Assembly: GCA_902595555.1 (NCBI GenBank)
Contig: CACJQM010000005.1
Location: 23,534-87,533, forward strand
Length of the DNA: 64,000 nucleotides
Direction: 5' to 3'
Origin: an uncultured Bacteroidota bacterium
GTDB lineage: Bacteria; Bacteroidota; Bacteroidia; Flavobacteriales; Flavobacteriaceae
Shown: positions 2,352-61,075 of the stretch, one piece after another
Layout: each line of letters opens with the position of its first letter
Position numbering within the stretch: position 1 is the first letter of the stretch
Translations under genes and position numbers: made by a program
The notes under the pieces: generated by a model
Told to the model about the DNA's origin: nothing
What the model saw: only the letters and a program-made list of their open reading frames with translations
Database searches by the model: none

Positions 2352-2702
2352 TTATTTTTTAACTTCTTTGATTCTAGCTTTTTTACCTCTTAATTCTTTG
2401 AAATAATAAATTCGGGATCTTCTTACTTTCCCTTTTTTATTAACCTCAATCTTTTTAATTGTAGGAAGATTAAATGGAAAAATTCTTTCAATACCTACGG
2501 TACCTGACATTTTTCTTATTGTAAATGTTTTTGTTTTTCCTGTTCCTTTTATTTGAATTACAACTCCTTTGAAAAACTGAGTTCTTGATTTTTCACCTTC
2601 TTTAATTTCGTAGTAAACTGTGATGGTATCACCAGATTTAAACTCTGGATAATCATTTTGAGTTATAAATTCGTCTTGAACGTATTTTAGTAAAGACTTC
2701 AT
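2352..2702 (-). CDS. rplS: 50S ribosomal protein L19
   Basis: 116 aa. L19-like [33 protein letters not shown]...GIERIFP. Lies downstream of trmD, as in the classical trmD operon. Confidence 0.95.
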
Positions 2703-2806
2703 TTTATTTTAATTTTAAAAATGACCAACATTCGTAGATACCAGAGGTTAATCAAGCGGTGGCAAACTTACATATTTTATAGTTAAAAAAAAATTATTTA
2801 TAAGTA

Positions 2807-3472
2807 TTAAGGCTTAATTACCTTTGTTTTTTCATCAGATTTTTTTTCTCTCCACTCTTTTACTTTTTTTGGGTCACCAGAAAGAAGTATCTCCGGAACT
2901 TTTAAATTTTTGTATTTAGATGGTCTGGTGTAAACCGGTGGTGCAATCAACCCGTCTTGAAAAGAATCTTCAAGTGCGGAAGTTTCATCATTTAAAACAC
3001 CTGGAATCAATCTTATAATCGAATCACATAAAACAGCAGCCGGAAGCTCACCTCCTGAAAGAACATAATCTCCAATTGAAAGTTCCATAGTTACCAAGTT
3101 GTCTCTTACTCTTTGATCAATACCTTTATAATGACCACATAGGATAATTAGATTTCCAGAGATTGATAATTTATTTGAAATTTTTTGAGTTAATTTTTTT
3201 GCATCTGGTGTCATAAAAATAACTTCAGAATAATCATTAGACTTCTTAAGATGTGAGATACAGTTATCTATTGGTTCAATCATCAAGACCATGCCAGATC
3301 CACCACCATATTGGTAATCATCAATTTGTTTTTTATTATTGTTCGAAAAATCTTTTAAATCGTGAATATTAATTTGAACAATTCCCTTTTCAATAGCTCT
3401 GCTCATTATTGATCCTGAAAATGGACTTTTTAAAAGTTCAGGTGTCGCACTTATAATATCAATGATTTTCAT
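2807..3472 (-). CDS. trmD: tRNA (guanine37-N1)-methyltransferase
   Basis: 221 aa. SPOUT/TrmD pattern MKIIDIISATPELL..., GHYKGIDQRV, SIGDYVLSGGELPAAVLCDSIIRLIPGVL. Confidence 0.95.
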   Translation of the reverse strand: MKIIDIISATPELLKSPFSGSIMSRAIEKGIVQINIHDLKDFSNNNKKQIDDYQYGGGSGMVLMIEPIDNCISHLKKSNDYSEVIFMTPDAKKLTQKISNKLSISGNLIILCGHYKGIDQRVRDNLVTMELSIGDYVLSGGELPAAVLCDSIIRLIPGVLNDETSALEDSFQDGLIAPPVYTRPSKYKNLKVPEILLSGDPKKVKEWREKKSDEKTKVIKP

Positions 3473-3477
3473 TAATA

Positions 3478-4872
3478 TTAATCAAAAATAAGTTTCTCCT
3501 TTTCTCCATTCAAATCAACAAAAGTTATCTGAAAAATATCGGCTCTTTCGAATGATTTTAATTCAGATGTATTAGAAATTTGAGTGTTATTTATTTCGGT
3601 CAAAATATAACCTGATCTGATACCCATCCTAAAAAGTGTTCCATTTCTATTGATTACAACTTTTACACCATTTTCAGTATTTAGTTCGTCTAGTTCACTT
3701 TCGCTTGCATCTTTAAGTTGCATTCCATAGAATTGAACGTATGTGCTTCTTTTTAACTGCACACCAACATTAAGAGATTTATTATTTCTAAAAATTTTAA
3801 CATTTAATTTATCACCTGGTCTCTTAGAATTTAAATATCCTGAGAGATCAGCGAATTTATTTATTTTGACATTATCAATTTGTTGAATTATGTCACCTTT
3901 TCGAATTCCAGCGATGTGAGCACCCATATTTGGATCTGTGTCATTTATGTAAAACCCTTCTGTAATATCAATTCCTAACTCATTAGAATTTTGAGAATTC
4001 AAACTTTGTCCTGTTACGCCAAGCAATCCTCTTTGAACATCTCCAAATTCAAGAATATCCTCATATATTTTTCTAGCTATGTTACTAGGCACAGCAAATG
4101 AATAACCAATAAAACCTGCATTTGTACTTTGAATTGCAGTATTTATACCAATTAAATCACCATTAATATTAACAAGTGCTCCACCACTATTACCACTATT
4201 AACAGCTGCATCTGTTTGTATGAAGGATTGGTTTTTGGAATCGTAATCATTTAGATCTCTTGATTTTGCACTTATGATACCAGCTGTAACTGTAGATGTT
4301 AGGTTAAATGGATTGCCTACAGCCAAAACCCATTCTCCAATTTTAGTTTGGTCAGAGTCAGCAAATCTAATGTAGGGAAATCTACTTTCACCGTTAATTT
4401 TCAGTACAGCTATATCAGAATTTTGATCTGTTCCAATCAACTCGGCATCAAAAGATTTATTATCATTTGTGGTAACCTCAATTTGAGTTGCATTTTCAAT
4501 AACATGATTGTTTGTAATTATGTAGCCGTCACTAGAAACAATTACACCAGATCCGGTTCCAATCGTTGTTCGGTCATCAGAGTTACCGTAAAATAAGTCC
4601 CACAGACTATTAGAATTTTTAGCTTTAGCAGTATTTTTGACATGTACTACACTGTTAATAGTTTTCTCAGCAGCAACAGTAAAATCTGGATTTCTTACTA
4701 TAAAATTTCTGCTTTGCGGAGCTTGATTATTAATGGTTTCTGAACTTAAAATTGTATTTAAAACATTAGAATTTGGTTCAGACTCATTATTTCTTTCTGA
4801 AAAAACAAAAACAGCTAATACAATCATTAGTACTGGTATAGTGATATTGTATATAAGCTTTATATTCTTCAT
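3478..4872 (-). CDS. htrA: Do/HtrA-family periplasmic serine endopeptidase with PDZ region
   Basis: 464 aa. N-terminal membrane anchor. Trypsin-like triad contexts TNNHV, DIAVLK and GNSGGALVN. C-terminal PDZ-like segment GIRKGDIIQQIDNVKI. Confidence 0.9.
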   Translation of the reverse strand: MKNIKLIYNITIPVLMIVLAVFVFSERNNESEPNSNVLNTILSSETINNQAPQSRNFIVRNPDFTVAAEKTINSVVHVKNTAKAKNSNSLWDLFYGNSDDRTTIGTGSGVIVSSDGYIITNNHVIENATQIEVTTNDNKSFDAELIGTDQNSDIAVLKINGESRFPYIRFADSDQTKIGEWVLAVGNPFNLTSTVTAGIISAKSRDLNDYDSKNQSFIQTDAAVNSGNSGGALVNINGDLIGINTAIQSTNAGFIGYSFAVPSNIARKIYEDILEFGDVQRGLLGVTGQSLNSQNSNELGIDITEGFYINDTDPNMGAHIAGIRKGDIIQQIDNVKINKFADLSGYLNSKRPGDKLNVKIFRNNKSLNVGVQLKRSTYVQFYGMQLKDASESELDELNTENGVKVVINRNGTLFRMGIRSGYILTEINNTQISNTSELKSFERADIFQITFVDLNGEKEKLIFD

Positions 4873-6854: not shown

Positions 6855-7463
6855 ATGTTTAATAATTTAAAACTTAGTTTTATTTTCTTTTTGACCGCTT
6901 TTTTTATAAGCAGTCCAGAGTCTCTAGCCCCTAAATTCGACAACATTGATTACTCAGTTAAATTAAATATTAATGCAAATATTTATGTGCCAGTACCTTT
7001 TACAGTCAAAGATTTTGTTGGTTTTAAAAACTTTTTAGGGTTTTTTGAATCAGGTTCTAATTACAAAAAAGTAAATAGATTTGGATACTTAGGTAAATAC
7101 CAATTTGGTAAAGGAACTTTAAAAATGTATGGTGTTAGAAATTTATCTGAATATAGGCTTAATCCCGAACTTCAAGAAAAAGTTTTTTTAATGAATGTCA
7201 TGAGAAATAAGTGGATTTTAAGAAGAGAAATCTCTTGGTATTCAAATAGATATTTAAACGGCACCTACATAAGTGAATCTGGAATTATAGCTGCTGCTCA
7301 TTTATCAGGGCCTGGAAATGTAAAAAAATTTTTGAGAAGTCATTGCAACCCTGATTTAGATAAAAGAGATGCAAATGGCACATCTATTTCCGATTACTTA
7401 AACATTTTTAAAGATTATGACTTGGAAAAGATCCCTGCCATCCAAAAGCCAAAAAGAAATTAA
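6855..7463 (+). CDS. secreted hypothetical protein, lysozyme/lytic-transglycosylase-like
   Basis: 202 aa with a signal-peptide-like N-terminus. GYLGKYQFGKGTL and IIAAAHLSGPGNVKKFL resemble the G-x-YQ and AHL-G motifs of lambda-lysozyme-like muramidase folds. The functional call is tentative. Confidence 0.5.
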   Translation: MFNNLKLSFIFFLTAFFISSPESLAPKFDNIDYSVKLNINANIYVPVPFTVKDFVGFKNFLGFFESGSNYKKVNRFGYLGKYQFGKGTLKMYGVRNLSEYRLNPELQEKVFLMNVMRNKWILRREISWYSNRYLNGTYISESGIIAAAHLSGPGNVKKFLRSHCNPDLDKRDANGTSISDYLNIFKDYDLEKIPAIQKPKRN

Positions 7464-8881
7464 TCTGAAAATTTCTTATTTAAATCTTCAACGTACTTTC
7501 TAAATTGTTTATCAGTGAAAGCAAGATTATCAACAGTCTTACAGGCATGTAGTACAGTTGCATGGTCTCTGTGACCAATTTTAGTTCCAATACTTGCCAA
7601 TGAAGCTTTGGTAAACTTTTTAGAGAAAAACATTGCAAGTTGTCTTGCTTGAACAATATGTCTTTTTCTTGTTTTTGATTGAAGAGTTGAAACATCCATT
7701 TGAAAATAGTCAGATACAACTTTTTGAATATGATCTATTGATATTTCCTTTTTTGTATTCTTTACAAATTTTTCAACAATAACCTTAGCTAAATCAATTG
7801 TAATATTTTTTCTATTGAATGATGATTGAGCCATTAATGAAATTATAGCACCCTCCAACTCTCTAACATTAGTTTTTATATACTTGGCAACATAAAAAAT
7901 AATTTCTTCATCCATTTCTACACCATCACGATCTAATTTATTTTTGATTATTGATACTCTGGTTTCATAATCAGGAGTTTGAAGCTCGGCTGATAACCCC
8001 CACTTGAATCGAGATAATAATCTTTGTTCGATTTCTTGCATATCCACAGGTGCTTTGTCAGAAGTAAGTACCAGCTGTTTACCATTTTGATGTAAGTGGT
8101 TAAAGATATGGAAAAAAACATCCTGAGTTCCAGACTTACCAGAGAAAAACTGTACATCATCAATTATCAAAACATCAATTAGTTGGTAAAAATGAATAAA
8201 ATCATTTCTGTTATTTTTTTTCACTGATTCAATATACTGTTGCGTGAATTTTTCTGCAGAAATATATAAAACTGTTTTGTCTGGAAATTTTTGTTTGATA
8301 TTAACACCAATGGCATTTGCGAGATGGGTTTTACCTAAACCAACTCCTCCAAATATTAATAAAGGATTAAATGAGGTTCCACCTGGTCGATTTGATACTG
8401 CATAACCTGCAGATCTGGCCAATCTATTGGAATCACCTTCTAAAAAATTATTAAAATTGTAATTTGGATTCAATTGAGAATCAATTTTTAAATTTTTAAT
8501 ACCTGGAATTATGAATGGATTGGTAAGTTCGGTTTTAAAATATGCCGAAGAGCTTTCAATTTTTTGTGACTCCATTTTTGGTTTATATTCACTTGGTATT
8601 TTTTCAGTAAAAGATTTAGTAGATCCGAATGAATTTTCCATTCTAATTACATAAACTAATTTGGCGTCTTTTCCTAGCTCTTTGGTAAGTGCCATTTTAA
8701 GTAATTTAACATAGTGTTCCTCCAACCACTCATAGAAAAATTTACTTGGTACTTGAATACTTAAGATATTGTCATCTAGTTTTACAGGCTGGATTGGTTC
8801 AAACCATGTTTTATAAGCTTGTTCCTGTATATTATCTTTTATAAATTCAAGACAATTATTCCATACAGGTTGTAAGCTCAT
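7460..8881 (-). CDS. dnaA: chromosomal replication initiator protein DnaA
   Basis: 473 aa. AAA+ Walker A GGVGLGKTHL. DnaA C-terminal DNA-binding signature ...IGHRDHATVLHACK. Confidence 0.97.
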   Translation of the reverse strand: MSLQPVWNNCLEFIKDNIQEQAYKTWFEPIQPVKLDDNILSIQVPSKFFYEWLEEHYVKLLKMALTKELGKDAKLVYVIRMENSFGSTKSFTEKIPSEYKPKMESQKIESSSAYFKTELTNPFIIPGIKNLKIDSQLNPNYNFNNFLEGDSNRLARSAGYAVSNRPGGTSFNPLLIFGGVGLGKTHLANAIGVNIKQKFPDKTVLYISAEKFTQQYIESVKKNNRNDFIHFYQLIDVLIIDDVQFFSGKSGTQDVFFHIFNHLHQNGKQLVLTSDKAPVDMQEIEQRLLSRFKWGLSAELQTPDYETRVSIIKNKLDRDGVEMDEEIIFYVAKYIKTNVRELEGAIISLMAQSSFNRKNITIDLAKVIVEKFVKNTKKEISIDHIQKVVSDYFQMDVSTLQSKTRKRHIVQARQLAMFFSKKFTKASLASIGTKIGHRDHATVLHACKTVDNLAFTDKQFRKYVEDLNKKFSD

Positions 8882-9045
8882 ACTTAATAAAATTTTTAAT
8901 TTGTTGTTACTAAACAGTTAAATCGGAGTGAGGATTCAATTGTTAATAAGTCAAACAAATATGTACATTTTTTTTAAAAAAAAAAATCATTTTAGTATTG
9001 AATTTTAAAAAAGTTTTTTTGATATTATAAGCTAACTGAAAATAG

Positions 9046-9456
9046 GTGAATTTAGATCAATTAAAATCCTTTAAAACTACTATAACCGCTAGGTATTCAG
9101 AGACCGACTCTATGTCTTATGTTCACCATAGTAACTATCTAAAATATTTTGAAATTGGTAGATTAGCTTGGTTCAAAAATGTTGGATTTTCTTATAAAAA
9201 ATTGGAAGAAGAAAACATTATCTTACCTGTTATTAGGACCAATATTACTTTCAGAAGACCAGCATTTTTTGAGGATGAATTGATATTAGAGACTACATTA
9301 ATTAAAGTGCCATCTTATTCCATAGAATTTGAATATAAAATTTTCAAGGAATCAGAATTAATAAATGAGGGTTACACCAAGTTGGTTTTTCTAAATAAAA
9401 AAACTAACAAACCAATTAGATGTCCAAAAAAAATAATTGATGCAATTATTAATTGA
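9046..9456 (+). CDS. YbgC/4HBT-family acyl-CoA thioesterase
   Basis: 136 aa with a GTG start. Hot-dog fold pattern ...RYSETDSMSYVHHSNYLKYFEIGR.... Confidence 0.8.
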   Translation: MNLDQLKSFKTTITARYSETDSMSYVHHSNYLKYFEIGRLAWFKNVGFSYKKLEEENIILPVIRTNITFRRPAFFEDELILETTLIKVPSYSIEFEYKIFKESELINEGYTKLVFLNKKTNKPIRCPKKIIDAIIN

Positions 9457-16402: not shown

Positions 16403-17608
16403 ATGTCAGTTCTTAAGGATAAAAACATCTTACTTGGTGTTTCTGGCGGAATAGCAGCTTATAAATCAATTACGTTACTTAGGTTATTAAAAAAAAATGG
16501 AGCTAACGTTCAAGTTATTTTTACTAGTTCAGCTCACGATTTTGTTACATCACTTACTTTTTCAACTTTATCTGAAAGAAATGTTTTAACGAATTTTTTT
16601 GAAGAAGAAGACGATAACAAAACTTGGAATAATCATGTTGATTTAGCAGAGTGGTCTGATTATTTCCTAATTGTTCCGGCAACATCATCAACTATTTCAA
16701 AAATGGTTTCAGGAAATGCAGACAATCTTCTTGTAGCAACATATTTATCATGTAAATCCCAAGTTTTTTTTGCTCCTGCGATGGATCTAGAAATGTATAA
16801 ATCAATTTCAACTAAAAATAATATTTCAGCACTTCAAGATAAAGGTGATATTTTAATTAAACCTGGTAAAGGTCCTCTTGCAAGTGGGTTATCTGGTGAA
16901 GGAAGAGTTGAAGAACCAGAAAAAATTTTAGAACTACTTAAAAAACACGTTAAAAAAAAACTAATTTTTAATGGAAAATCAATTTTAGTTACAGCTGGTC
17001 CAACATATGAAATGATTGATCCAGTAAGGTTTATTGGTAATTTTTCAAGCGGAAAAATGGGCTTTGAAATTGCAAAACAAGCAAGTACAATGGGTGCCAA
17101 AGTATTTTTAATTTCAGGCCCATCAAATGAAATTGTGGATGACGAAAATATTATTTTAAAAAAAATAATATCTGCGGATCAAATGTACGATGAATGTATC
17201 AAGATTTTTCCTGAAATAGATATTTGTATTATGTCTGCAGCTGTTTCTGACTATAAACCCTTAAAATCATATAAAAATAAACTCAAAAAAAGTTCAACTA
17301 AGTCTTTACAAATAGAATTAAAACAAAATAAGGATATAATTAAAACTTTAGGTTCAATAAAAGATAAAAATCAAAAATTAATTGGCTTTGCGTTAGAGAC
17401 CGATGATGAAATAAAAAATGCTAAAATTAAATTAAAAAATAAAAATCTTGATGCAATTGTATTAAATTCACTAAATATTAATGGGGCAGGATTTAATTCC
17501 GATACAAATAAAATAAGTTTCATAACTTCAACCTTAATTAAAGATTTTCCCTTAAAGAATAAAAGAAATGTTGCTAAAGATGTCTTACTTGAAATATTTA
17601 ATTTATAG
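16403..17608 (+). CDS. coaBC: bifunctional phosphopantothenoylcysteine decarboxylase / phosphopantothenate-cysteine ligase
   Basis: 401 aa. Flavoprotein N-domain LLGVSGGIAAYKS...PAMDLEMY and CoaB domain ...VTAGPTYEMIDPVRFIGNFSSGKMG. Confidence 0.95.
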   Translation: MSVLKDKNILLGVSGGIAAYKSITLLRLLKKNGANVQVIFTSSAHDFVTSLTFSTLSERNVLTNFFEEEDDNKTWNNHVDLAEWSDYFLIVPATSSTISKMVSGNADNLLVATYLSCKSQVFFAPAMDLEMYKSISTKNNISALQDKGDILIKPGKGPLASGLSGEGRVEEPEKILELLKKHVKKKLIFNGKSILVTAGPTYEMIDPVRFIGNFSSGKMGFEIAKQASTMGAKVFLISGPSNEIVDDENIILKKIISADQMYDECIKIFPEIDICIMSAAVSDYKPLKSYKNKLKKSSTKSLQIELKQNKDIIKTLGSIKDKNQKLIGFALETDDEIKNAKIKLKNKNLDAIVLNSLNINGAGFNSDTNKISFITSTLIKDFPLKNKRNVAKDVLLEIFNL

Positions 17609-20143: not shown

Positions 20144-20162
20144 CACTATATTTAAAAAAAAA

Positions 20163-20981
20163 ATGAGTAATAATTTATTAAGAAATAAAAAAGGAATCAT
20201 TTTTGGTGCATTGGATGAGAATTCTATTGCATGGAAGACTGCGGAAAAAATAAAAGCTCAGGGTGGAGAATTTATCCTTACTAATGCACCTGTTGCCCTT
20301 AGAATGGGCAAATTGAATGATTTAGCTAAAAAAACAAACTCTATAGTTGTTGCGGCTGATGCAACTCGTAATGATGATTTAGAAAACTTAATTGATAAAA
20401 CTCTTGAACATTTTAATGGGAAAATTGATTTTGTTTTACACTCAATCGGAATGTCAGTTAATGTTAGAAAAGGAAAACACTACACAGACCTTAATCATGA
20501 TTGGTTGACAAAAGGATGGGATGTTTCAGCAGTTTCATTTCATAAATTAATGCAAGTCCTTTACAATAAAGATGCTATGAATGAATGGGGAAGTATCGTA
20601 GCTCTTTCATATATGGCGGCTCAAAGAGTTTTCCCAGATTACAATGATATGGCCGACAATAAAGCATACCTTGAGTCCATTGCAAGAAGCTTTGGTTATT
20701 TTTTTGGTAAAGAAAAAAAAGTTCGAGTAAATACTATAAGCCAATCACCAACACCAACAACTGCAGGACAAGGGGTTAAAGGCTTTGATGGTTTTATAAA
20801 TTATGCTGAAAAAATGTCTCCACTTGGAAATGCTACAGCAGATGAATGCGCTGATTATACTATAACTCTCTTTTCAGACCTGACAAGAAAAGTAACCCTA
20901 CAAAATTTATTTCATGATGGTGGTTTTAGTAATGTTGGAGTAAGTCAAGAAGTTATTGATATAGTTTCAAAGAATAGTTAA
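20163..20981 (+). CDS. fabI: enoyl-[acyl-carrier-protein] reductase (NADH), FabI
   Basis: 272 aa. FabI-type SDR with ...FVLHSIGMS... and Tyr/Lys active-site spacing (SYMAAQRV...MADNKAYLES). Confidence 0.9.
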   Translation: MSNNLLRNKKGIIFGALDENSIAWKTAEKIKAQGGEFILTNAPVALRMGKLNDLAKKTNSIVVAADATRNDDLENLIDKTLEHFNGKIDFVLHSIGMSVNVRKGKHYTDLNHDWLTKGWDVSAVSFHKLMQVLYNKDAMNEWGSIVALSYMAAQRVFPDYNDMADNKAYLESIARSFGYFFGKEKKVRVNTISQSPTPTTAGQGVKGFDGFINYAEKMSPLGNATADECADYTITLFSDLTRKVTLQNLFHDGGFSNVGVSQEVIDIVSKNS

Positions 20982-56476: not shown

Positions 56477-58518
56477 AACAGTATACATTCAAAAATAGAG
56501 AGATAAGCTGGCTGGATTTTAATGCTAGAGTTTTACAAGAAGCTGAGGATTCGAATGTTCCTCTAATAGAAAGAATTAGATTTATAGGTATATTTTCAAA
56601 TAATCTGGATGAGTTTTACAAAGTAAGATATGCTACCGTTAAAAGGATAGCTCTTTCAGCTAAAAAACAAAAAAAATTATACAAAGGACTAAATGCTATT
56701 GATTTACTCAAAGAAATAACAAAAAAAACAATTTCATTACAAAATAGGAGTACAAATGCATTAAATACAATAATTGATAAATTAAAGTCTGAAAATATAT
56801 TTTTTGTTGATGAAAAATCAATTCCTAAGAAATTTATAAATTATATAAATGAGTATTTTATTGAGAAAATTCAACCACAGCTTGAAATAGTTGTTCTTGA
56901 TGAAAAGTCAAAGTTTCCCAATCTAACTGACTCATCATCTTTTTTGACTATTAAAATAGTTTCTAAATCATTTGATCATAAATACGCACTAATAAAAATA
57001 CCTACACAGTTAGATAGATTTTTAGTTTTGAACGAAACTAAATGTAAATATGTCATTCTAATAGACGATATAATTAGATATCATTTAAATGAAATTTTTG
57101 AGATTTTTTCCCCTAAGAAGATAAATGCCAATATGATTAAAATTAGTAGAGATGCTGAACTTGATTTTGCTTATGATATTTCAAAAAGTTATTTAGAAAA
57201 AATTTCACTTAGTATCAAAAATAGATCAACAGGAGAACCTGTTCGTTTTGTTTATGACGATAAAATTGAAAAAGAAACCTTAGATTTTCTTTTAGATAAG
57301 TTAAATTTTGATAATAATACCGATAGTATTATACCTGGAGGTAAGTACCATAATAGAAGAGATTATATGTCTTTTCCTTCAATGAATCAAAATAAACTTA
57401 ATTATGAGAAACTTAAACCACTTGACTTATATAATTTTGATTTATCAAAAAATATATTTGATACAATAAAAGAAAGAGATTACCTGTTACATACTCCTTT
57501 TCATAAATTCACTTATATATTACGATTTTTAACTGAGGCATCAATTGATCCAAGTGTAACAAAAATTTCGATTACTATCTACAGGTTGTCAAAATTATCA
57601 AGTGTTGCAAATGCATTAATCAATGCAGCAAAAAATGGTAAGGAAGTTACTGTACAAATTGAATTACAGGCAAGATTTGATGAAAAAGCTAATATCAAGT
57701 ATGCTAAATTATTAGAAGAGCAAGGTGTAAAGCTAATTTTTGGTATTCAAAATTTAAAGGTTCATGCTAAAATCTGTGTTATAGAAAGAAAAACACCAAA
57801 AGGTTTAGAAAAGTATGGTTTTATTAGCACAGGTAACTTCAATGAATCTACAGCAAAAATATATACGGATTTCACATTATTCACACACAATAAGAAGATT
57901 TTAAATGATGTATCTAAAATTTTCAAGTTTTTTAATGCTAATTATAAAAACTTTAAGTACGACCACTTGAAGCTATCGCCATTCGATACACAATCATTTT
58001 TCACAAAAATGATTAAACGTGAAATCAAAAATGCAAAAAAAGGCCTTACAGCATCTATTAAAATTAAGTTGAATAGTCTTACTAGTTATGCCATGGTTGA
58101 GGAACTATACAAAGCTGCAAAACAAGGAGTTAAAATAAAAATGATTATTAGAGGAATTTGCTGTTTAATACCAGAAAATGAAAAAAATATTGAAGTTATC
58201 AGCGTTGTTGATAGATTTTTAGAACACACTCGTTTTTTTATATTCAATAATAATGGTAAAAATGAAACTTATATTTCATCAGCAGATTGGATGACTAGAA
58301 ACCTAGACAATAGGGTAGAAGTTACATGTCCTATATTAGATAAAAATATAAATGATGAAATAAATAATATTTTTAATATTTATTGGTCTGATAATATTAA
58401 ATCTAGAAGAATAAATACAGAAATTCCAAATCAATATCAATCTAATCCAAAAAGTAAAAAAGTTATTAGATCTCAAATTGAGATCTATAATTACTACAAA
58501 TTAAAACTTGAAAAATAA
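56473..58518 (+). CDS. ppk1: polyphosphate kinase 1
   Basis: 681 aa. N-terminal NREISWLDFNARVLQEA...FIGIFSNNLDEFYKVR and two PLD-like C-terminal domains (KVHAKICVIE, RFLEHTRFFIF). Confidence 0.96.
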   Translation: MKQYTFKNREISWLDFNARVLQEAEDSNVPLIERIRFIGIFSNNLDEFYKVRYATVKRIALSAKKQKKLYKGLNAIDLLKEITKKTISLQNRSTNALNTIIDKLKSENIFFVDEKSIPKKFINYINEYFIEKIQPQLEIVVLDEKSKFPNLTDSSSFLTIKIVSKSFDHKYALIKIPTQLDRFLVLNETKCKYVILIDDIIRYHLNEIFEIFSPKKINANMIKISRDAELDFAYDISKSYLEKISLSIKNRSTGEPVRFVYDDKIEKETLDFLLDKLNFDNNTDSIIPGGKYHNRRDYMSFPSMNQNKLNYEKLKPLDLYNFDLSKNIFDTIKERDYLLHTPFHKFTYILRFLTEASIDPSVTKISITIYRLSKLSSVANALINAAKNGKEVTVQIELQARFDEKANIKYAKLLEEQGVKLIFGIQNLKVHAKICVIERKTPKGLEKYGFISTGNFNESTAKIYTDFTLFTHNKKILNDVSKIFKFFNANYKNFKYDHLKLSPFDTQSFFTKMIKREIKNAKKGLTASIKIKLNSLTSYAMVEELYKAAKQGVKIKMIIRGICCLIPENEKNIEVISVVDRFLEHTRFFIFNNNGKNETYISSADWMTRNLDNRVEVTCPILDKNINDEINNIFNIYWSDNIKSRRINTEIPNQYQSNPKSKKVIRSQIEIYNYYKLKLEK

Positions 58519-59392
58519 GTTAGAAATAGATAAAGTCGCGACAATTGATATTGGATCCAATGCTATAAGACTATTGATATCAAATGTTTTTTCTGTAAAT
58601 GGAAAATTGCAACATACAAAAAACTCTTTATATCGTGTTCAGCTTCGATTGGGAGAGGACTCCTTTAAAAAAGGTATAATTAGCCCAAAAAATCTTGAAA
58701 AATTAAAATCAACACTAAAATCATTTAAATTTTTAATGGATGTAAATGATGTAAAAAAATATTTGGCATATGCGACATCAGCAATGCGAGGCATAAGTAA
58801 TGCTGAAAAGCTACTTAAATCATTGGAAATTGAAACAGGTGTTAAGGTTGAAATAATAACAGGTAAAAAAGAATCAGAGATAGTTGCAAAAAACGACATA
58901 AGTACACACATTGGAAAAACAAAGAACTATTGCTTTATTGATGTAGGAGGTGGTAGTACCGAAGTTGTAATATATAAAAAAGGAGAGTTTTACAAGTCTA
59001 AATCATTTAAAATTGGAGGGGTAAGGTTAATAAATGGGCTTGTCGAGGATTCAACTTGGAAAGAATTCGAGCTTTGGCTTAAAAGCCATGCAGTAGAATT
59101 AAAAAAATTAAAGATTATTGGTATTGGTGGGAACATAAATAAATTATATAAATTATCTGGTGTAAAATATACAAAGCCACTTGAAAGAAAAAGATTCAAA
59201 AAGACCTTAGTTAGACTTGAAAATATGTCATATACAAAAAAACTTACCAAACTTAAATTGAATCCAGATAGAATAGATGTTATTGTTCCAGCTGGAAAAA
59301 TTTATTTTTTCATGATGAAGACTTTAGGAATTAAGGAAATATATGTTCCTCGAATTGGACTTGCTGATGGTATGGTTAATGAAATAATTTAA
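58508..59392 (+). CDS. ppx: exopolyphosphatase (Ppx/GppA family, N-terminal two-domain form)
   Basis: 294 aa with a TTG start. ASKHA-fold motifs ATIDIGSNAIRLL and IDVGGGSTEV. Confidence 0.88.
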   Translation: MKNKLEIDKVATIDIGSNAIRLLISNVFSVNGKLQHTKNSLYRVQLRLGEDSFKKGIISPKNLEKLKSTLKSFKFLMDVNDVKKYLAYATSAMRGISNAEKLLKSLEIETGVKVEIITGKKESEIVAKNDISTHIGKTKNYCFIDVGGGSTEVVIYKKGEFYKSKSFKIGGVRLINGLVEDSTWKEFELWLKSHAVELKKLKIIGIGGNINKLYKLSGVKYTKPLERKRFKKTLVRLENMSYTKKLTKLKLNPDRIDVIVPAGKIYFFMMKTLGIKEIYVPRIGLADGMVNEII

Positions 59393-61075
59393 CTAAAGAT
59401 CCAGTTTTAAATCTTTTTTAAACTGATCTAATAGAGGATTAATTTTATTTAATTTTTCAAACTTTTCTTGAGGTGTGGAATAATACTCTTTGCTCGTACT
59501 CTTATCAACAATAACTTCTAATTCTATTAAATCGTTTTGTAATTCTAATCTCAAAAATTTGATTAGATTTTCTCTATCATTATCAATTTCTTTTTTATTA
59601 CTTTTTGAAGGAACAGTAAATATAATTTTATTGTTTTGAAATATATTAGGTTCATTAATTTCTAAAAGACTAGATAAGCTATTATTACCGTTTTCAGAGA
59701 GATTCTTTGAATATTGAATCCATTTTAGTTTTAGTTTTTCAGAATTAAACTCATTACTCAATTTTTCAGCATGCTCCTTTTCTTTATTTTTTTCATCGAT
59801 TACTTCTTTTTTGAGTTTAAGACTGGACAGTGACAGAGCACTAATTTCTTTTTTTTCTGATTCTTTAATCTCCTCAACTTGGGGAATTTCTTCAATTATA
59901 GTTTCTTTTTCTTTTTTTACTGATTCTTTATGAAATGAATTATCTTCCGATTTTTCAATATCATGAGTTTTTAAATCAATTTTTTTTTTTTGTGTTTTGG
60001 TGGTAATTACACCTTCATTGTCTTTGGATTTACATATTTTCATTAATGTGATTTCGACAAGAAGTTTTTTATTCTCAACCTGATTATATTTAAATATTGA
60101 TTGTTCAATTACAGTAATTATCTCAACAATTTGGTTTTTATCAATTACCTCACCTTGTGAAACAAATGAACTTAATAAGTTATTATTAAAATCAAAGATT
60201 GCATGAGATTCTATTGATTTAGCTACAAGAATATTTCTAAAATGGTTAGCTAATCCTGTTAAAAACTCTTTTTCATTATATCCTTTGTCACAGATTTCAT
60301 TGAATTGAATCAATGTTGGAATTAATTCACAGTTAATTATATTTTGAGATAGTTTTAGAAAAGATTCATTATCAAGAACATTTAATAATTCAGATGTTTT
60401 TTCTGTTGTAATATTTTTATTTGTAAAACTTACAATCCTGTCTAAAATTGTTAACGAATCTCTTAAAGATCCATCTGATTTTCTTGCAATTATTGATAAA
60501 GCTTCATCATCAAATTTAAAATCCTCTTGTTTACAAATATTAATTAAAGCTTCCACTATTTCCACATCACTAATTCTATTAAAATCATAAATCTGACATC
60601 TTGAAAGAATAGTTGGAAGAATTTTGTTTTTTTCAGTGGTCGCGAGGACAAAAACAATATGTTTTGGTGGCTCCTCTAATGTTTTTAAAAAAGCATTCAT
60701 TGCTTGAGTTGTTAGCATATGAACTTCATCAATAATATATACTTTATATTTTCCGATTTGAGGTGGAATTCTTACCTTATCAATAAGATTTTTCATTTCC
60801 TCAATTCCTCTATTTGATGCTGCATCCAATTCAAAAACATTAAATGACAAATCATGAGAATCAATATTTTCAATTGAAGATTTATTAATTTCTCTAGCAT
60901 AAATTCTAGCACAAGATGTTTTTCCAACCCCTCTAGGACCGCAAAACAGTATTGCTGAAGGAATTTTATTTTCTTTTATTGAATTTTTTAGAGTTCCTGT
61001 AACATGATTTTGCCCAACAACAGTTTCAAAACTTTTAGGTCTATATTTAAGCGAAGAGACAACAAAATCATTCAT
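59393..61075 (-). CDS. dnaX: DNA polymerase III subunit tau (gamma/tau, DnaX)
   Basis: 560 aa. Walker A GPRGVGKTS, Walker B IIDEVHML and SRC motif TILSRCQ. The C-terminal half is low-complexity and Lys/Glu-rich. Confidence 0.95.
   Translation of the reverse strand: MNDFVVSSLKYRPKSFETVVGQNHVTGTLKNSIKENKIPSAILFCGPRGVGKTSCARIYAREINKSSIENIDSHDLSFNVFELDAASNRGIEEMKNLIDKVRIPPQIGKYKVYIIDEVHMLTTQAMNAFLKTLEEPPKHIVFVLATTEKNKILPTILSRCQIYDFNRISDVEIVEALINICKQEDFKFDDEALSIIARKSDGSLRDSLTILDRIVSFTNKNITTEKTSELLNVLDNESFLKLSQNIINCELIPTLIQFNEICDKGYNEKEFLTGLANHFRNILVAKSIESHAIFDFNNNLLSSFVSQGEVIDKNQIVEIITVIEQSIFKYNQVENKKLLVEITLMKICKSKDNEGVITTKTQKKKIDLKTHDIEKSEDNSFHKESVKKEKETIIEEIPQVEEIKESEKKEISALSLSSLKLKKEVIDEKNKEKEHAEKLSNEFNSEKLKLKWIQYSKNLSENGNNSLSSLLEINEPNIFQNNKIIFTVPSKSNKKEIDNDRENLIKFLRLELQNDLIELEVIVDKSTSKEYYSTPQEKFEKLNKINPLLDQFKKDLKLDL
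59980..59991 (-). other. A12 homopolymer (slippery run) inside dnaX at codons 362-366; candidate recoding site for a gamma-like truncated product
   Basis: The minus strand reads ACA CAA AAA AAA AAA ATT GAT TTA AAA. The -1 frame gives AAT TGA and the +1 frame gives TTG ATT TAA. Confidence 0.45.

Follow-up and report, generated by a model that had tools for sequence, protein, structure and literature searches.

The dnaX gene of the window and its A12 tract

The window analysed here is a stretch of 64,000 nucleotides of contig CACJQM010000005.1 (assembly GCA_902595555.1), and the subject of this report is a run of 12 A within its minus-strand dnaX gene, a candidate recoding site at which the short gamma form of DnaX could be made beside full-length tau (Table 1). 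The source is an abundant, uncultured, genome-streamlined marine flavobacterium, the closest genome matches of which are GORG single-cell genomes. The identity of the gene was established by the NCBIfam models TIGR02397 (dnaX_nterm; 358 bits, covering residues 7-348 with a model of 355 positions), PRK14971 (514 bits) and PRK05563, and by the Pfam matches DNA_pol3_delta2, DNAX_ATPase_lid and DNA_pol3_gamma3 (PF12169, domain III, residues 223-349). Moreover, the E. coli gamma/tau chains of solved clamp-loader structures align with DnaX residues 5-273. The C-terminal region found in tau only, which would be missing from the predicted gamma, contains the motif YTxxEKFxxMxEKNPxLxxLxxxLDLD, conserved in a multiple alignment of homologues, and PF28557/DUF8439 is recorded as a precomputed annotation on proteins identical to the DnaX of the window.

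On the minus strand, positions 60000-59971 read CCAAAACAC-A12-TTGATTTAA, with the codons ...ACC ACC AAA ACA CAA AAA AAA AAA ATT GAT TTA AAA..., and the A-run starts 13 codons past the end of domain III. Tau is encoded by a single uninterrupted open reading frame (ORF), the zero frame extending 195 codons beyond the tract. One extra A, or a -1 shift, leads into AAT TGA and hence to a stop after one codon, giving a product of 366 amino acids (aa) and 41.6 kDa, while one fewer A, or a +1 shift, leads into TTG ATT TAA and to a stop after two codons, giving a product of 367 aa and 41.7 kDa. An earlier, sequence-only reading of this DNA had drawn attention to the run, and its coordinates and codons 361-367 (ACA CAA AAA AAA AAA ATT GAT) were confirmed, as were its count of about 195 further zero-frame codons and its off-frame products of 366-367 aa, both of which match the values computed here. 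It had also placed the tract right after domains I-III, in agreement with the domain matches, which put the end of domain III at about residue 349.

Table 1. Position of the features discussed in the dnaX gene, in coordinates of the window
Feature	Position	Strand	Basis
dnaX ORF, 560 codons plus stop; zero-frame product full-length tau, 64.4 kDa	59393..61075	-	ORF list, NCBIfam/Pfam, structures
Clamp-loader domains I-III (AAA+ module, lid, collar), codons 1-349, common to tau and predicted gamma	60029..61075	-	TIGR02397, PF12169
Predicted A12 slippage tract (T12 on the plus strand), codons 362-366 CAA AAA AAA AAA ATT	59980..59991	-	sequence
TGA stop of the -1 frame; ends the product of one extra A or a -1 ribosomal shift, ...TQKKKN, 366 aa	59976..59978	-	sequence
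TAA stop of the +1 frame; ends the product of one fewer A or two extra A, ...TQKKK(K)LI, 367-368 aa	59971..59973	-	sequence
Tau-only C-terminal region, codons 366-560: Lys/Glu-rich linker and conserved C-terminal module	59393..59979	-	ORF translation, alignment

Conservation in the population and in near relatives

The tract is exactly A12 in 11 independent assemblies (JGI, NCBI single-cell genomes, TARA and Logan), and it is therefore not an assembly artefact. All 120 protein variants found at 95-99% identity retain Q-K-K-K-x-D-L-K, one of them with KKKKK, and the adjacent residues vary. Within this population the tract is thus fixed. More distant relatives, with 78, 66, 53 and 52% DnaX identity, carry A11, A11, A11 and A12 at the homologous site, and the cultured Aureibaculum luteum (42% DnaX identity) carries A10 there; the peptide flanking the tract is unconserved among these relatives of 42-78% identity. 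In the window and the marine relatives at 52-78% the -1 frame stops after one codon, and in Aureibaculum after two. Two Bacteroidales genomes were without the tract. Whether runs of at least nine A with near off-frame stops are conserved in Flavobacteriia despite the synonymous AAG, a question raised by the sequence-only reading, can thus be answered with yes, and the conservation described below goes well beyond Flavobacteriia. One contig among the relatives (PBKO01000002.1, L006), labelled 'Gammaproteobacteria bacterium SP266', carries a dnaX almost identical to that of Cryomorphaceae MED-G60 (L005), and is probably mis-binned or mislabelled.

A-runs and off-frame stops in an AT-rich genome

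A long A-run with near stops may arise as a compositional accident, without any function, where an AT-rich genome encodes a Lys-rich linker. The window has a composition that favours such an event, with 29.3% GC and AAA making up 81% of its Lys codons, and the marine relative L008 carries another run in its tau-only linker, A11 at codon 382, where L007 has A9 at the same site, so that long A-runs are not absolutely barred from the Lys-rich tau linker. The run counts of the window, on the other hand, show that such runs are avoided. Sense-strand A-runs within ORFs comprise 40 of A8 and three of A9, with none of A10 or A11, whereas the A12 in dnaX, which had been singled out earlier as the longest coding homopolymer, is the longest homopolymer of any kind in the entire window and its only coding run of at least 10. 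KKK triplets written entirely with AAA number two of 14, as compared to 7.5 expected (binomial P=0.003), the other 12 being interrupted by AAG, whereas KK pairs show no shortage (158 observed, 146 expected). A sharp fall in run counts is taken as a sign of the length at which slippage turns harmful in an organism (Baranov et al., 2005; PMC1088944). Here this threshold falls between A8 and A9, and the dnaX tract is well past it.

The nearby stops are a different matter. Within dnaX, off-frame stops as close as those at the tract are met at approximately 33% of codon positions for the -1 frame and 24% for the +1 frame, and both stops that close together are found at about 3.5-5% of positions. 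As evidence in their own right, the off-frame stops at the window site were consequently rejected, since they are too frequent in genes of 26-27% GC (p about 0.3 per frame), and they become informative only once pooled across lineages. The caveat attached to the sequence-only reading, that Lys runs and nearby off-frame stops should be fairly common by chance in so AT-rich a genome, is thus justified for the stops and unfounded for the Lys runs, coding runs of at least nine A being avoided.

The junction tract across Bacteroidota-like lineages

A protein search of 1.84 billion representatives was carried out with the gamma-equivalent part of DnaX as the query, and the best 150 matches, mutually less than 50% identical, were inspected. 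KK[K/N/T] was present in the first 45 residues past domain III in 118 of these 150 representatives, with a median offset of about 10, against a background of 8% in Lys-rich C-terminal windows and 0.6% in N-terminal windows. The commonest forms of the junction were EKKK (25), EKKN (23), LKKK (13), VKKK (9) and EKKT (7), and these residues differ just as would be expected if they were encoded by a nucleotide run GAAAAAAAAA(A). For broad sampling at the nucleotide level, metagenomes were scanned with a consensus-first alignment, which yielded 80 loci from soil, freshwater, marine, digester and gut samples with a gene GC of 33-55%. Together with the earlier loci these formed 57 clusters at a threshold of at least 90% identity; single linkage at 75% fused 45 loci. 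A junction tract was present in 38 of the 57 clusters, as A10 in 24, A11 in eight, and A12, A9 and A8 in two each, and it was found in genes of 45-51% GC (e.g., L025, L060, L077 and L082) as well as in genes with an AAA fraction of their own as low as 0.34-0.39.

Counting codons within tracts that are themselves defined by an A-run would be circular, and the codon test was therefore based on the motif as defined at the protein level. The leading Lys codons of the junction KK[K/N/T] were AAA in 75 of 76 cases, compared to 75% for KK pairs elsewhere in the same genes (P=1e-8), and the codon before the motif ended in A in 32 of the 38 clusters. Moreover, A10 occurred in three codon phases, namely GAA-AAA-AAA-AAy, xTA-AAA-AAA-AAA-C and GAT-AAA-AAA-AAA-Axx, demonstrating that it is the nucleotide length that is conserved and not the peptide. 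The compared sequences indicate that the tract is selected and conserved beyond what codon usage would lead us to expect, and the fact that so many clusters share the tract at the homologous site, genes of 45-51% GC and of low AAA usage included, strongly disfavours a compositional accident, which we regard as very improbable.

The same data bear on the possibility that it is the protein that needs a basic KKK patch at the hinge, for instance as a site for a protease or a partner as in the ClpXP-dependent case of Caulobacter, with the A-run as a mere by-product. Such a need would account for a KKK kept in an otherwise variable linker, and Caulobacter does produce gamma by proteolysis. However, the residues vary in the way that an A-run of fixed length predicts, the last one being K, N or T and the one before the patch E, Q, L, V, P, S, D, T, I, A or G, and neither the preservation of A10 in three phases nor the use of AAG in only one of the 76 codons would follow from a need for lysines. 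Since the reading frame itself also changes at the tract in eight clusters (see below), a requirement at the protein level seems hardly credible to us.

Some lineages are without the run. The junction of L061, which reads CAA AAG AAA AAC and has a longest A-run of 7, is the sole one among the clusters with an AAG inside the junction KKN, and this lineage appears to have lost the tract yet kept the peptide. Bacteroidales-like dnaX genes without the A-run were found at the gut and rumen loci L010, L030-L036 and L038-L075 and for the proteins P0175, P0179, P0220, P0230 and P0257, and they have a conserved junction peptide of their own, ...(A/G)DD..GGR.P..(I/L)KP(I/L)F.

Frame closure and exchange of frames between tau and gamma

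In all 38 clusters with a tract, a single frame downstream remains open for about 150-250 codons (except at contig ends), while the other two are shut within 11 codons and mostly within three. The null expectation has medians of 3-21 codons, and the difference is highly significant when the 38 clusters are combined (joint Fisher p = 1e-16). For closure in the 30 clusters with a single ORF, p was 0.027 with the -1 frame taken by itself and 0.002 with the +1 frame. Closure of both would be needed only if the mechanism fed both alternative frames, and it thus points to a mechanism of this kind.

The frame that remains open, and which encodes the tau C-terminus, is the zero frame in 30 clusters, the -1 frame in seven and the +1 frame in one. 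In the latter eight the zero frame comes to a stop shortly past the tract, and the gene appears as two ORFs (L042/L051, L060, L072/L079, L080, L081/L097, L083, L086/L088 and L092). The window is not of this type, as its zero frame goes on. Tau is essential in E. coli; with tau out of frame in eight clusters, shifting at the tract must be efficient in those lineages. Single-ORF and two-ORF forms were mixed among relatives at 75-79% identity, and the gut loci L092 (A8, two ORFs, tau in the -1 frame; 2501-3628) and L102 (A9, one ORF; 2501-4321) are 97.6% identical over the N-terminal 340 aa. The loci L099 and L103 have A9 and a single ORF, like L102. From these sequences, the difference between L092 and L102 would be either a real one-nucleotide flip or an assembly error.

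Homopolymers are hypermutable, and this closely related pair, as well as the interspersed forms at 75-79% identity, might suggest phase variation at the DNA level, in which replication slippage heritably alters the length of the tract and toggles the expression of full-length tau. In the population of the window, however, all 120 variants are full length and all 11 assemblies have exactly A12. In addition, an exact look-up of the gamma ORFs predicted for three common haplotypes with A10, A11, A13 or A14 returned none among approximately 15 billion proteins, a result that bears on DNA variants and assemblies and not on RNA. Turning off an essential subunit would furthermore be unviable unless slippage at the RNA level provided tau. 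We therefore give phase variation very little credence, and the flips of arrangement look like an evolutionary consequence of slippage and not like the working mechanism.

Transcriptional slippage as the proposed mechanism

We consider it probable that the tract is mainly a transcriptional recoding site of the type known from dnaX of Thermus thermophilus, which would make gamma beside tau. During transcription of the T12 template, the nascent A-tract would realign on the template and RNA polymerase would thereby produce dnaX mRNAs with a varied number of A. Those with 12 A, or with 12 plus or minus 3, would be translated into the 560 aa of full-length tau, the C-terminal region of which would contribute the contacts to polymerase and helicase, by analogy with E. 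coli. Messengers with 13 (or 10) A would run into the TGA one codon on and end in ...KKKN, and those with 11 or 14 A would reach the TAA two codons on and end in ...KKK(K)LI. All such off-length mRNAs would thus yield gamma-like proteins of about 42 kDa with clamp-loader domains I-III only.

Besides the closure of both alternative frames, three features favour a transcriptional route over a ribosomal one. First, the tract, with its length of 9-12, exceeds what a slippery heptamer needs, and this length is kept whatever the codon phase. Secondly, two-ORF relatives occur in both shift directions; a gene family with shifts of either kind is, by the criterion of Antonov et al. (2013; PMC3711429), a case of transcriptional realignment. 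Thirdly, the stimulators of the E. coli frameshift are absent. Nascent-RNA hairpins upstream of slippage sites are also said to stimulate transcriptional slippage, as reportedly found by Penno and co-workers in 2015. The 45 nucleotides 5' of the tract are unusually stable (z < -2) in four of the 38 lineages (L029, L067, L081 and L084), with a mean over the 38 of -0.75, and the corresponding segment of the window (z=-1.3) shows nothing notable.

The third feature rests on several searches, and these concern the principal alternative, namely that gamma is made mainly by the ribosome through a -1 frameshift on an in-phase A_AAA_AAA, in the manner of E. coli, ending at the TGA one codon on. E. coli dnaX does use this route, the tract contains A_AAA_AAA in phase, and the -1 stop follows closely in the window as well as in its marine relatives and Aureibaculum. 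However, the AAG-ending heptamer A_AAA_AAG is not there, and work reviewed by Atkins et al. (2016) found A_AAA_AAA to be far less prone to shifting in E. coli than A_AAA_AAG. The 55-60 nucleotides downstream of the tract in the window fold with -5.3 to -6.3 kcal/mol (z about -0.6), which is nothing stable, and no conserved 3' hairpin was detected across the 38 lineages (mean z=-0.36, with two of 38 below -2). A core resembling a Shine-Dalgarno (SD) sequence was present within 25 nucleotides upstream in just seven of the 38 lineages, the window having a weak GGTG 18 nucleotides upstream, and an Rfam cmscan of positions 59600-60400 at E<=10 found no DnaX frameshifting element, returning five unrelated sub-threshold matches. 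Bacteroidota in general use SD pairing little. A -1 route on the ribosome would, moreover, call for neither the conserved length of about 10 in any codon phase nor the closure of the +1 frame beyond chance, and one cluster even has tau in the +1 frame. Hence, we regard ribosomal frameshifting as an unlikely main source of gamma. Among the two mechanisms named by the sequence-only reading, the Thermus-type analogy holds, with one tau ORF and stops in both alternative frames, whereas an E. coli-style -1 shift has become the less likely one in the absence of the stimulators.

Several considerations count against slippage by RNA polymerase or limit its reach. The occurrence of slippage, its mainly transcriptional nature, the ratio of tau to gamma and the gamma product itself are features that we infer only from sequence, and the look-up of altered tract lengths described above is uninformative on RNA. 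At the window's own site the off-frame stops are merely mildly unusual (joint p about 0.04-0.05). Any A-run of at least nine includes an in-phase A_AAA_AAA, which permits a ribosomal contribution. Slippage on long runs may also be suppressed in some AT-rich bacteria, as Baranov et al. (2005; PMC1088944) caution; the avoidance of A-runs in the window argues against such suppression here, though this is based on just 64 kb. Finally, the term 'Bacteroidota-wide' rests on likeness to a Bacteroidota consensus and on the named taxa, the metagenome loci being without taxonomy.

Comparison with known dnaX recoding systems

A close parallel is found in Thermus thermophilus. Its dnaX encodes tau in one ORF and has an A9 tract, both other frames contain stops, and transcriptional slippage leads to a 1:1 ratio of tau to gamma (Larsen et al., 2000; Yurieva et al., 1997, for the slippage; both as summarised in PMC5009743 and PMC1088944). 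The window gene likewise has tau in one ORF, a sense-strand poly-A past the clamp-loader core and nearby stops in both non-zero frames, so that any change in length that is not a multiple of three yields a truncated gamma. It differs by having A12 instead of A9, by belonging to a genome of 29% GC in another phylum, and by the position of the site, which lies about 65% through the gene as compared to seven-eighths in Thermus (PMC1088944). Slippage has been shown experimentally in Thermus, whereas the window site is known from its sequence.

Within the phylum, a precedent is the study of Antonov et al. (2013; NAR 41:6514, PMC3711429), who described 17 dnaX genes from 12 genera as two adjacent ORFs and predicted transcriptional realignment for them. 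In Supplementary Figure S3 of that study, the poly-A tracts (A10 according to the main text) are set against the A9 of Thermus; the species shown include Flavobacterium johnsoniae, F. psychrophilum, Cytophaga hutchinsonii, Capnocytophaga ochracea, several Chlorobi and Coraliomargarita. The two-ORF dnaX genes of Bacteroidetes, Chlorobi and Verrucomicrobia have tracts of A7-A10, those of the Flavobacterium, Cytophaga and Capnocytophaga species being listed as A9-A10 (PMC3711429). The window shares with these genes the phylum, the homologous junction and a poly-A closely trailed by stops. In contrast, the two-ORF genes have gamma in the zero frame and reach tau by a shift, which is the reverse of the situation in the window. 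The sequence-only reading was not aware of any such description for Bacteroidota dnaX, and this is outdated, as poly-A dnaX genes of this phylum are covered by Antonov et al. (2013) in the two-ORF arrangement. For the single-ORF form in Bacteroidota, we found no description in the open-access literature. This form is not reported by Antonov et al. (2013) and is undetectable for frameshift finders, and the screen of Baranov et al. (2005; PMC1088944) explicitly left out truncating slippage. The window gene is thus the in-frame-tau counterpart of the reported two-ORF dnaX genes of Bacteroidota, and the kind of mechanism is already known.

Compared with dnaX of E. coli, which combines A_AAA_AAG with a 5' SD sequence and a 3' stem-loop, the window has the same gene, the same predicted outcome and a slippery sequence of Lys codons, and its predicted -1 gamma also ends one codon into the -1 frame, past the clamp-loader core. 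It is, on the other hand, without the AAG heptamer, the 3' hairpin, a conserved SD sequence or an Rfam match, and it has a longer tract and a +1 frame that is also shut. In Caulobacter crescentus, gamma results from processing of DnaX by the protease ClpXP; this resembles the window in that one gene would give two forms of DnaX, the short one (predicted in the window) without the tau C-terminus, but the mechanism is post-translational and has no signal at the nucleotide level. Lastly, transcriptional slippage on poly(A) is known from the AT-rich endosymbionts Buchnera and Blochmannia, for example in dnaX of Blochmannia vafer (PMC3017870). As proposed for the window, RNA polymerase slips there on long A-tracts of AT-rich genomes, dnaX included, yet in Blochmannia the slippage is understood to compensate for frameshift decay within the tau-only part, and the site is not a conserved one at the junction of gamma and tau.

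Neighbouring genes and other A-runs of the window

Downstream, dnaX converges with a gene for a Ppx/GppA phosphatase on the plus strand (58508-59392), the two meeting at 59392/59393 with zero bases between their stops. As there is no intergenic base, there is no space for a terminator between the two genes, and this convergence without a gap is present in all contigs of the population.

The other runs of at least 10 in the window are all non-coding. A T8A11 block (8968-8986) lies between the ORFs 7460-8881 on the minus strand and 9112-9456 on the plus strand, and an A10 (20154-20163) leads straight into the ATG of ORF 20163-20981 as an A-rich leader. Two of the three coding A9 runs (16489-16497 and 16952-16960) are located in the bifunctional coaBC (Dfp; ORF 16403-17608, plus strand). 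The second of these, GTT AAA AAA AAA CTA at residues 184-186, falls exactly in the linker between the flavoprotein domain CoaC (7-179) and the CoaB domain (190-373), and the two other frames run into stops within 1-3 codons. This run may be a further slippage site at a domain junction, or a coincidence.

Implications

To judge from the sequences compared here, a single ORF with a poly-A tract would be the common state of Bacteroidota-like lineages, beyond the two-ORF cases reported in 2013. For specialists in recoding, the modest extension is that about two-thirds of the sampled Bacteroidota-like dnaX lineages have a tract at the junction, with A10 as its most frequent length, mostly in a single-ORF form not reported before and with repeated flips between the two arrangements. 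We lean towards a still broader interpretation, in which a poly-A of about 10 at the junction of domains III and IV would be the ancestral means of setting tau:gamma by slippage of RNA polymerase in Bacteroidota and the sister Chlorobiota, most gut Bacteroidales-like lineages excepted. Single-nucleotide indels would have flipped the gene repeatedly between tau in frame and gamma in frame, and the single-ORF majority (30 of the 38 clusters) would have escaped notice, since to gene finders and frameshift finders it looks like a normal gene.

The reason for two forms of DnaX in bacteria is still debated, and the importance of the short form becomes more plausible with every independent route to gamma. 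With gamma as predicted here, the site adds an abundant, genome-streamlined marine flavobacterium known only from uncultured sources to the list of organisms with such a route. For annotation, this means that a two-ORF dnaX in Bacteroidota should not be labelled a pseudogene, and that ordinary-looking dnaX genes with the tract should be expected to give a gamma of about 42 kDa. The A10-A12 tract may moreover serve as a natural reporter for slippage of RNA polymerase in Bacteroidota.

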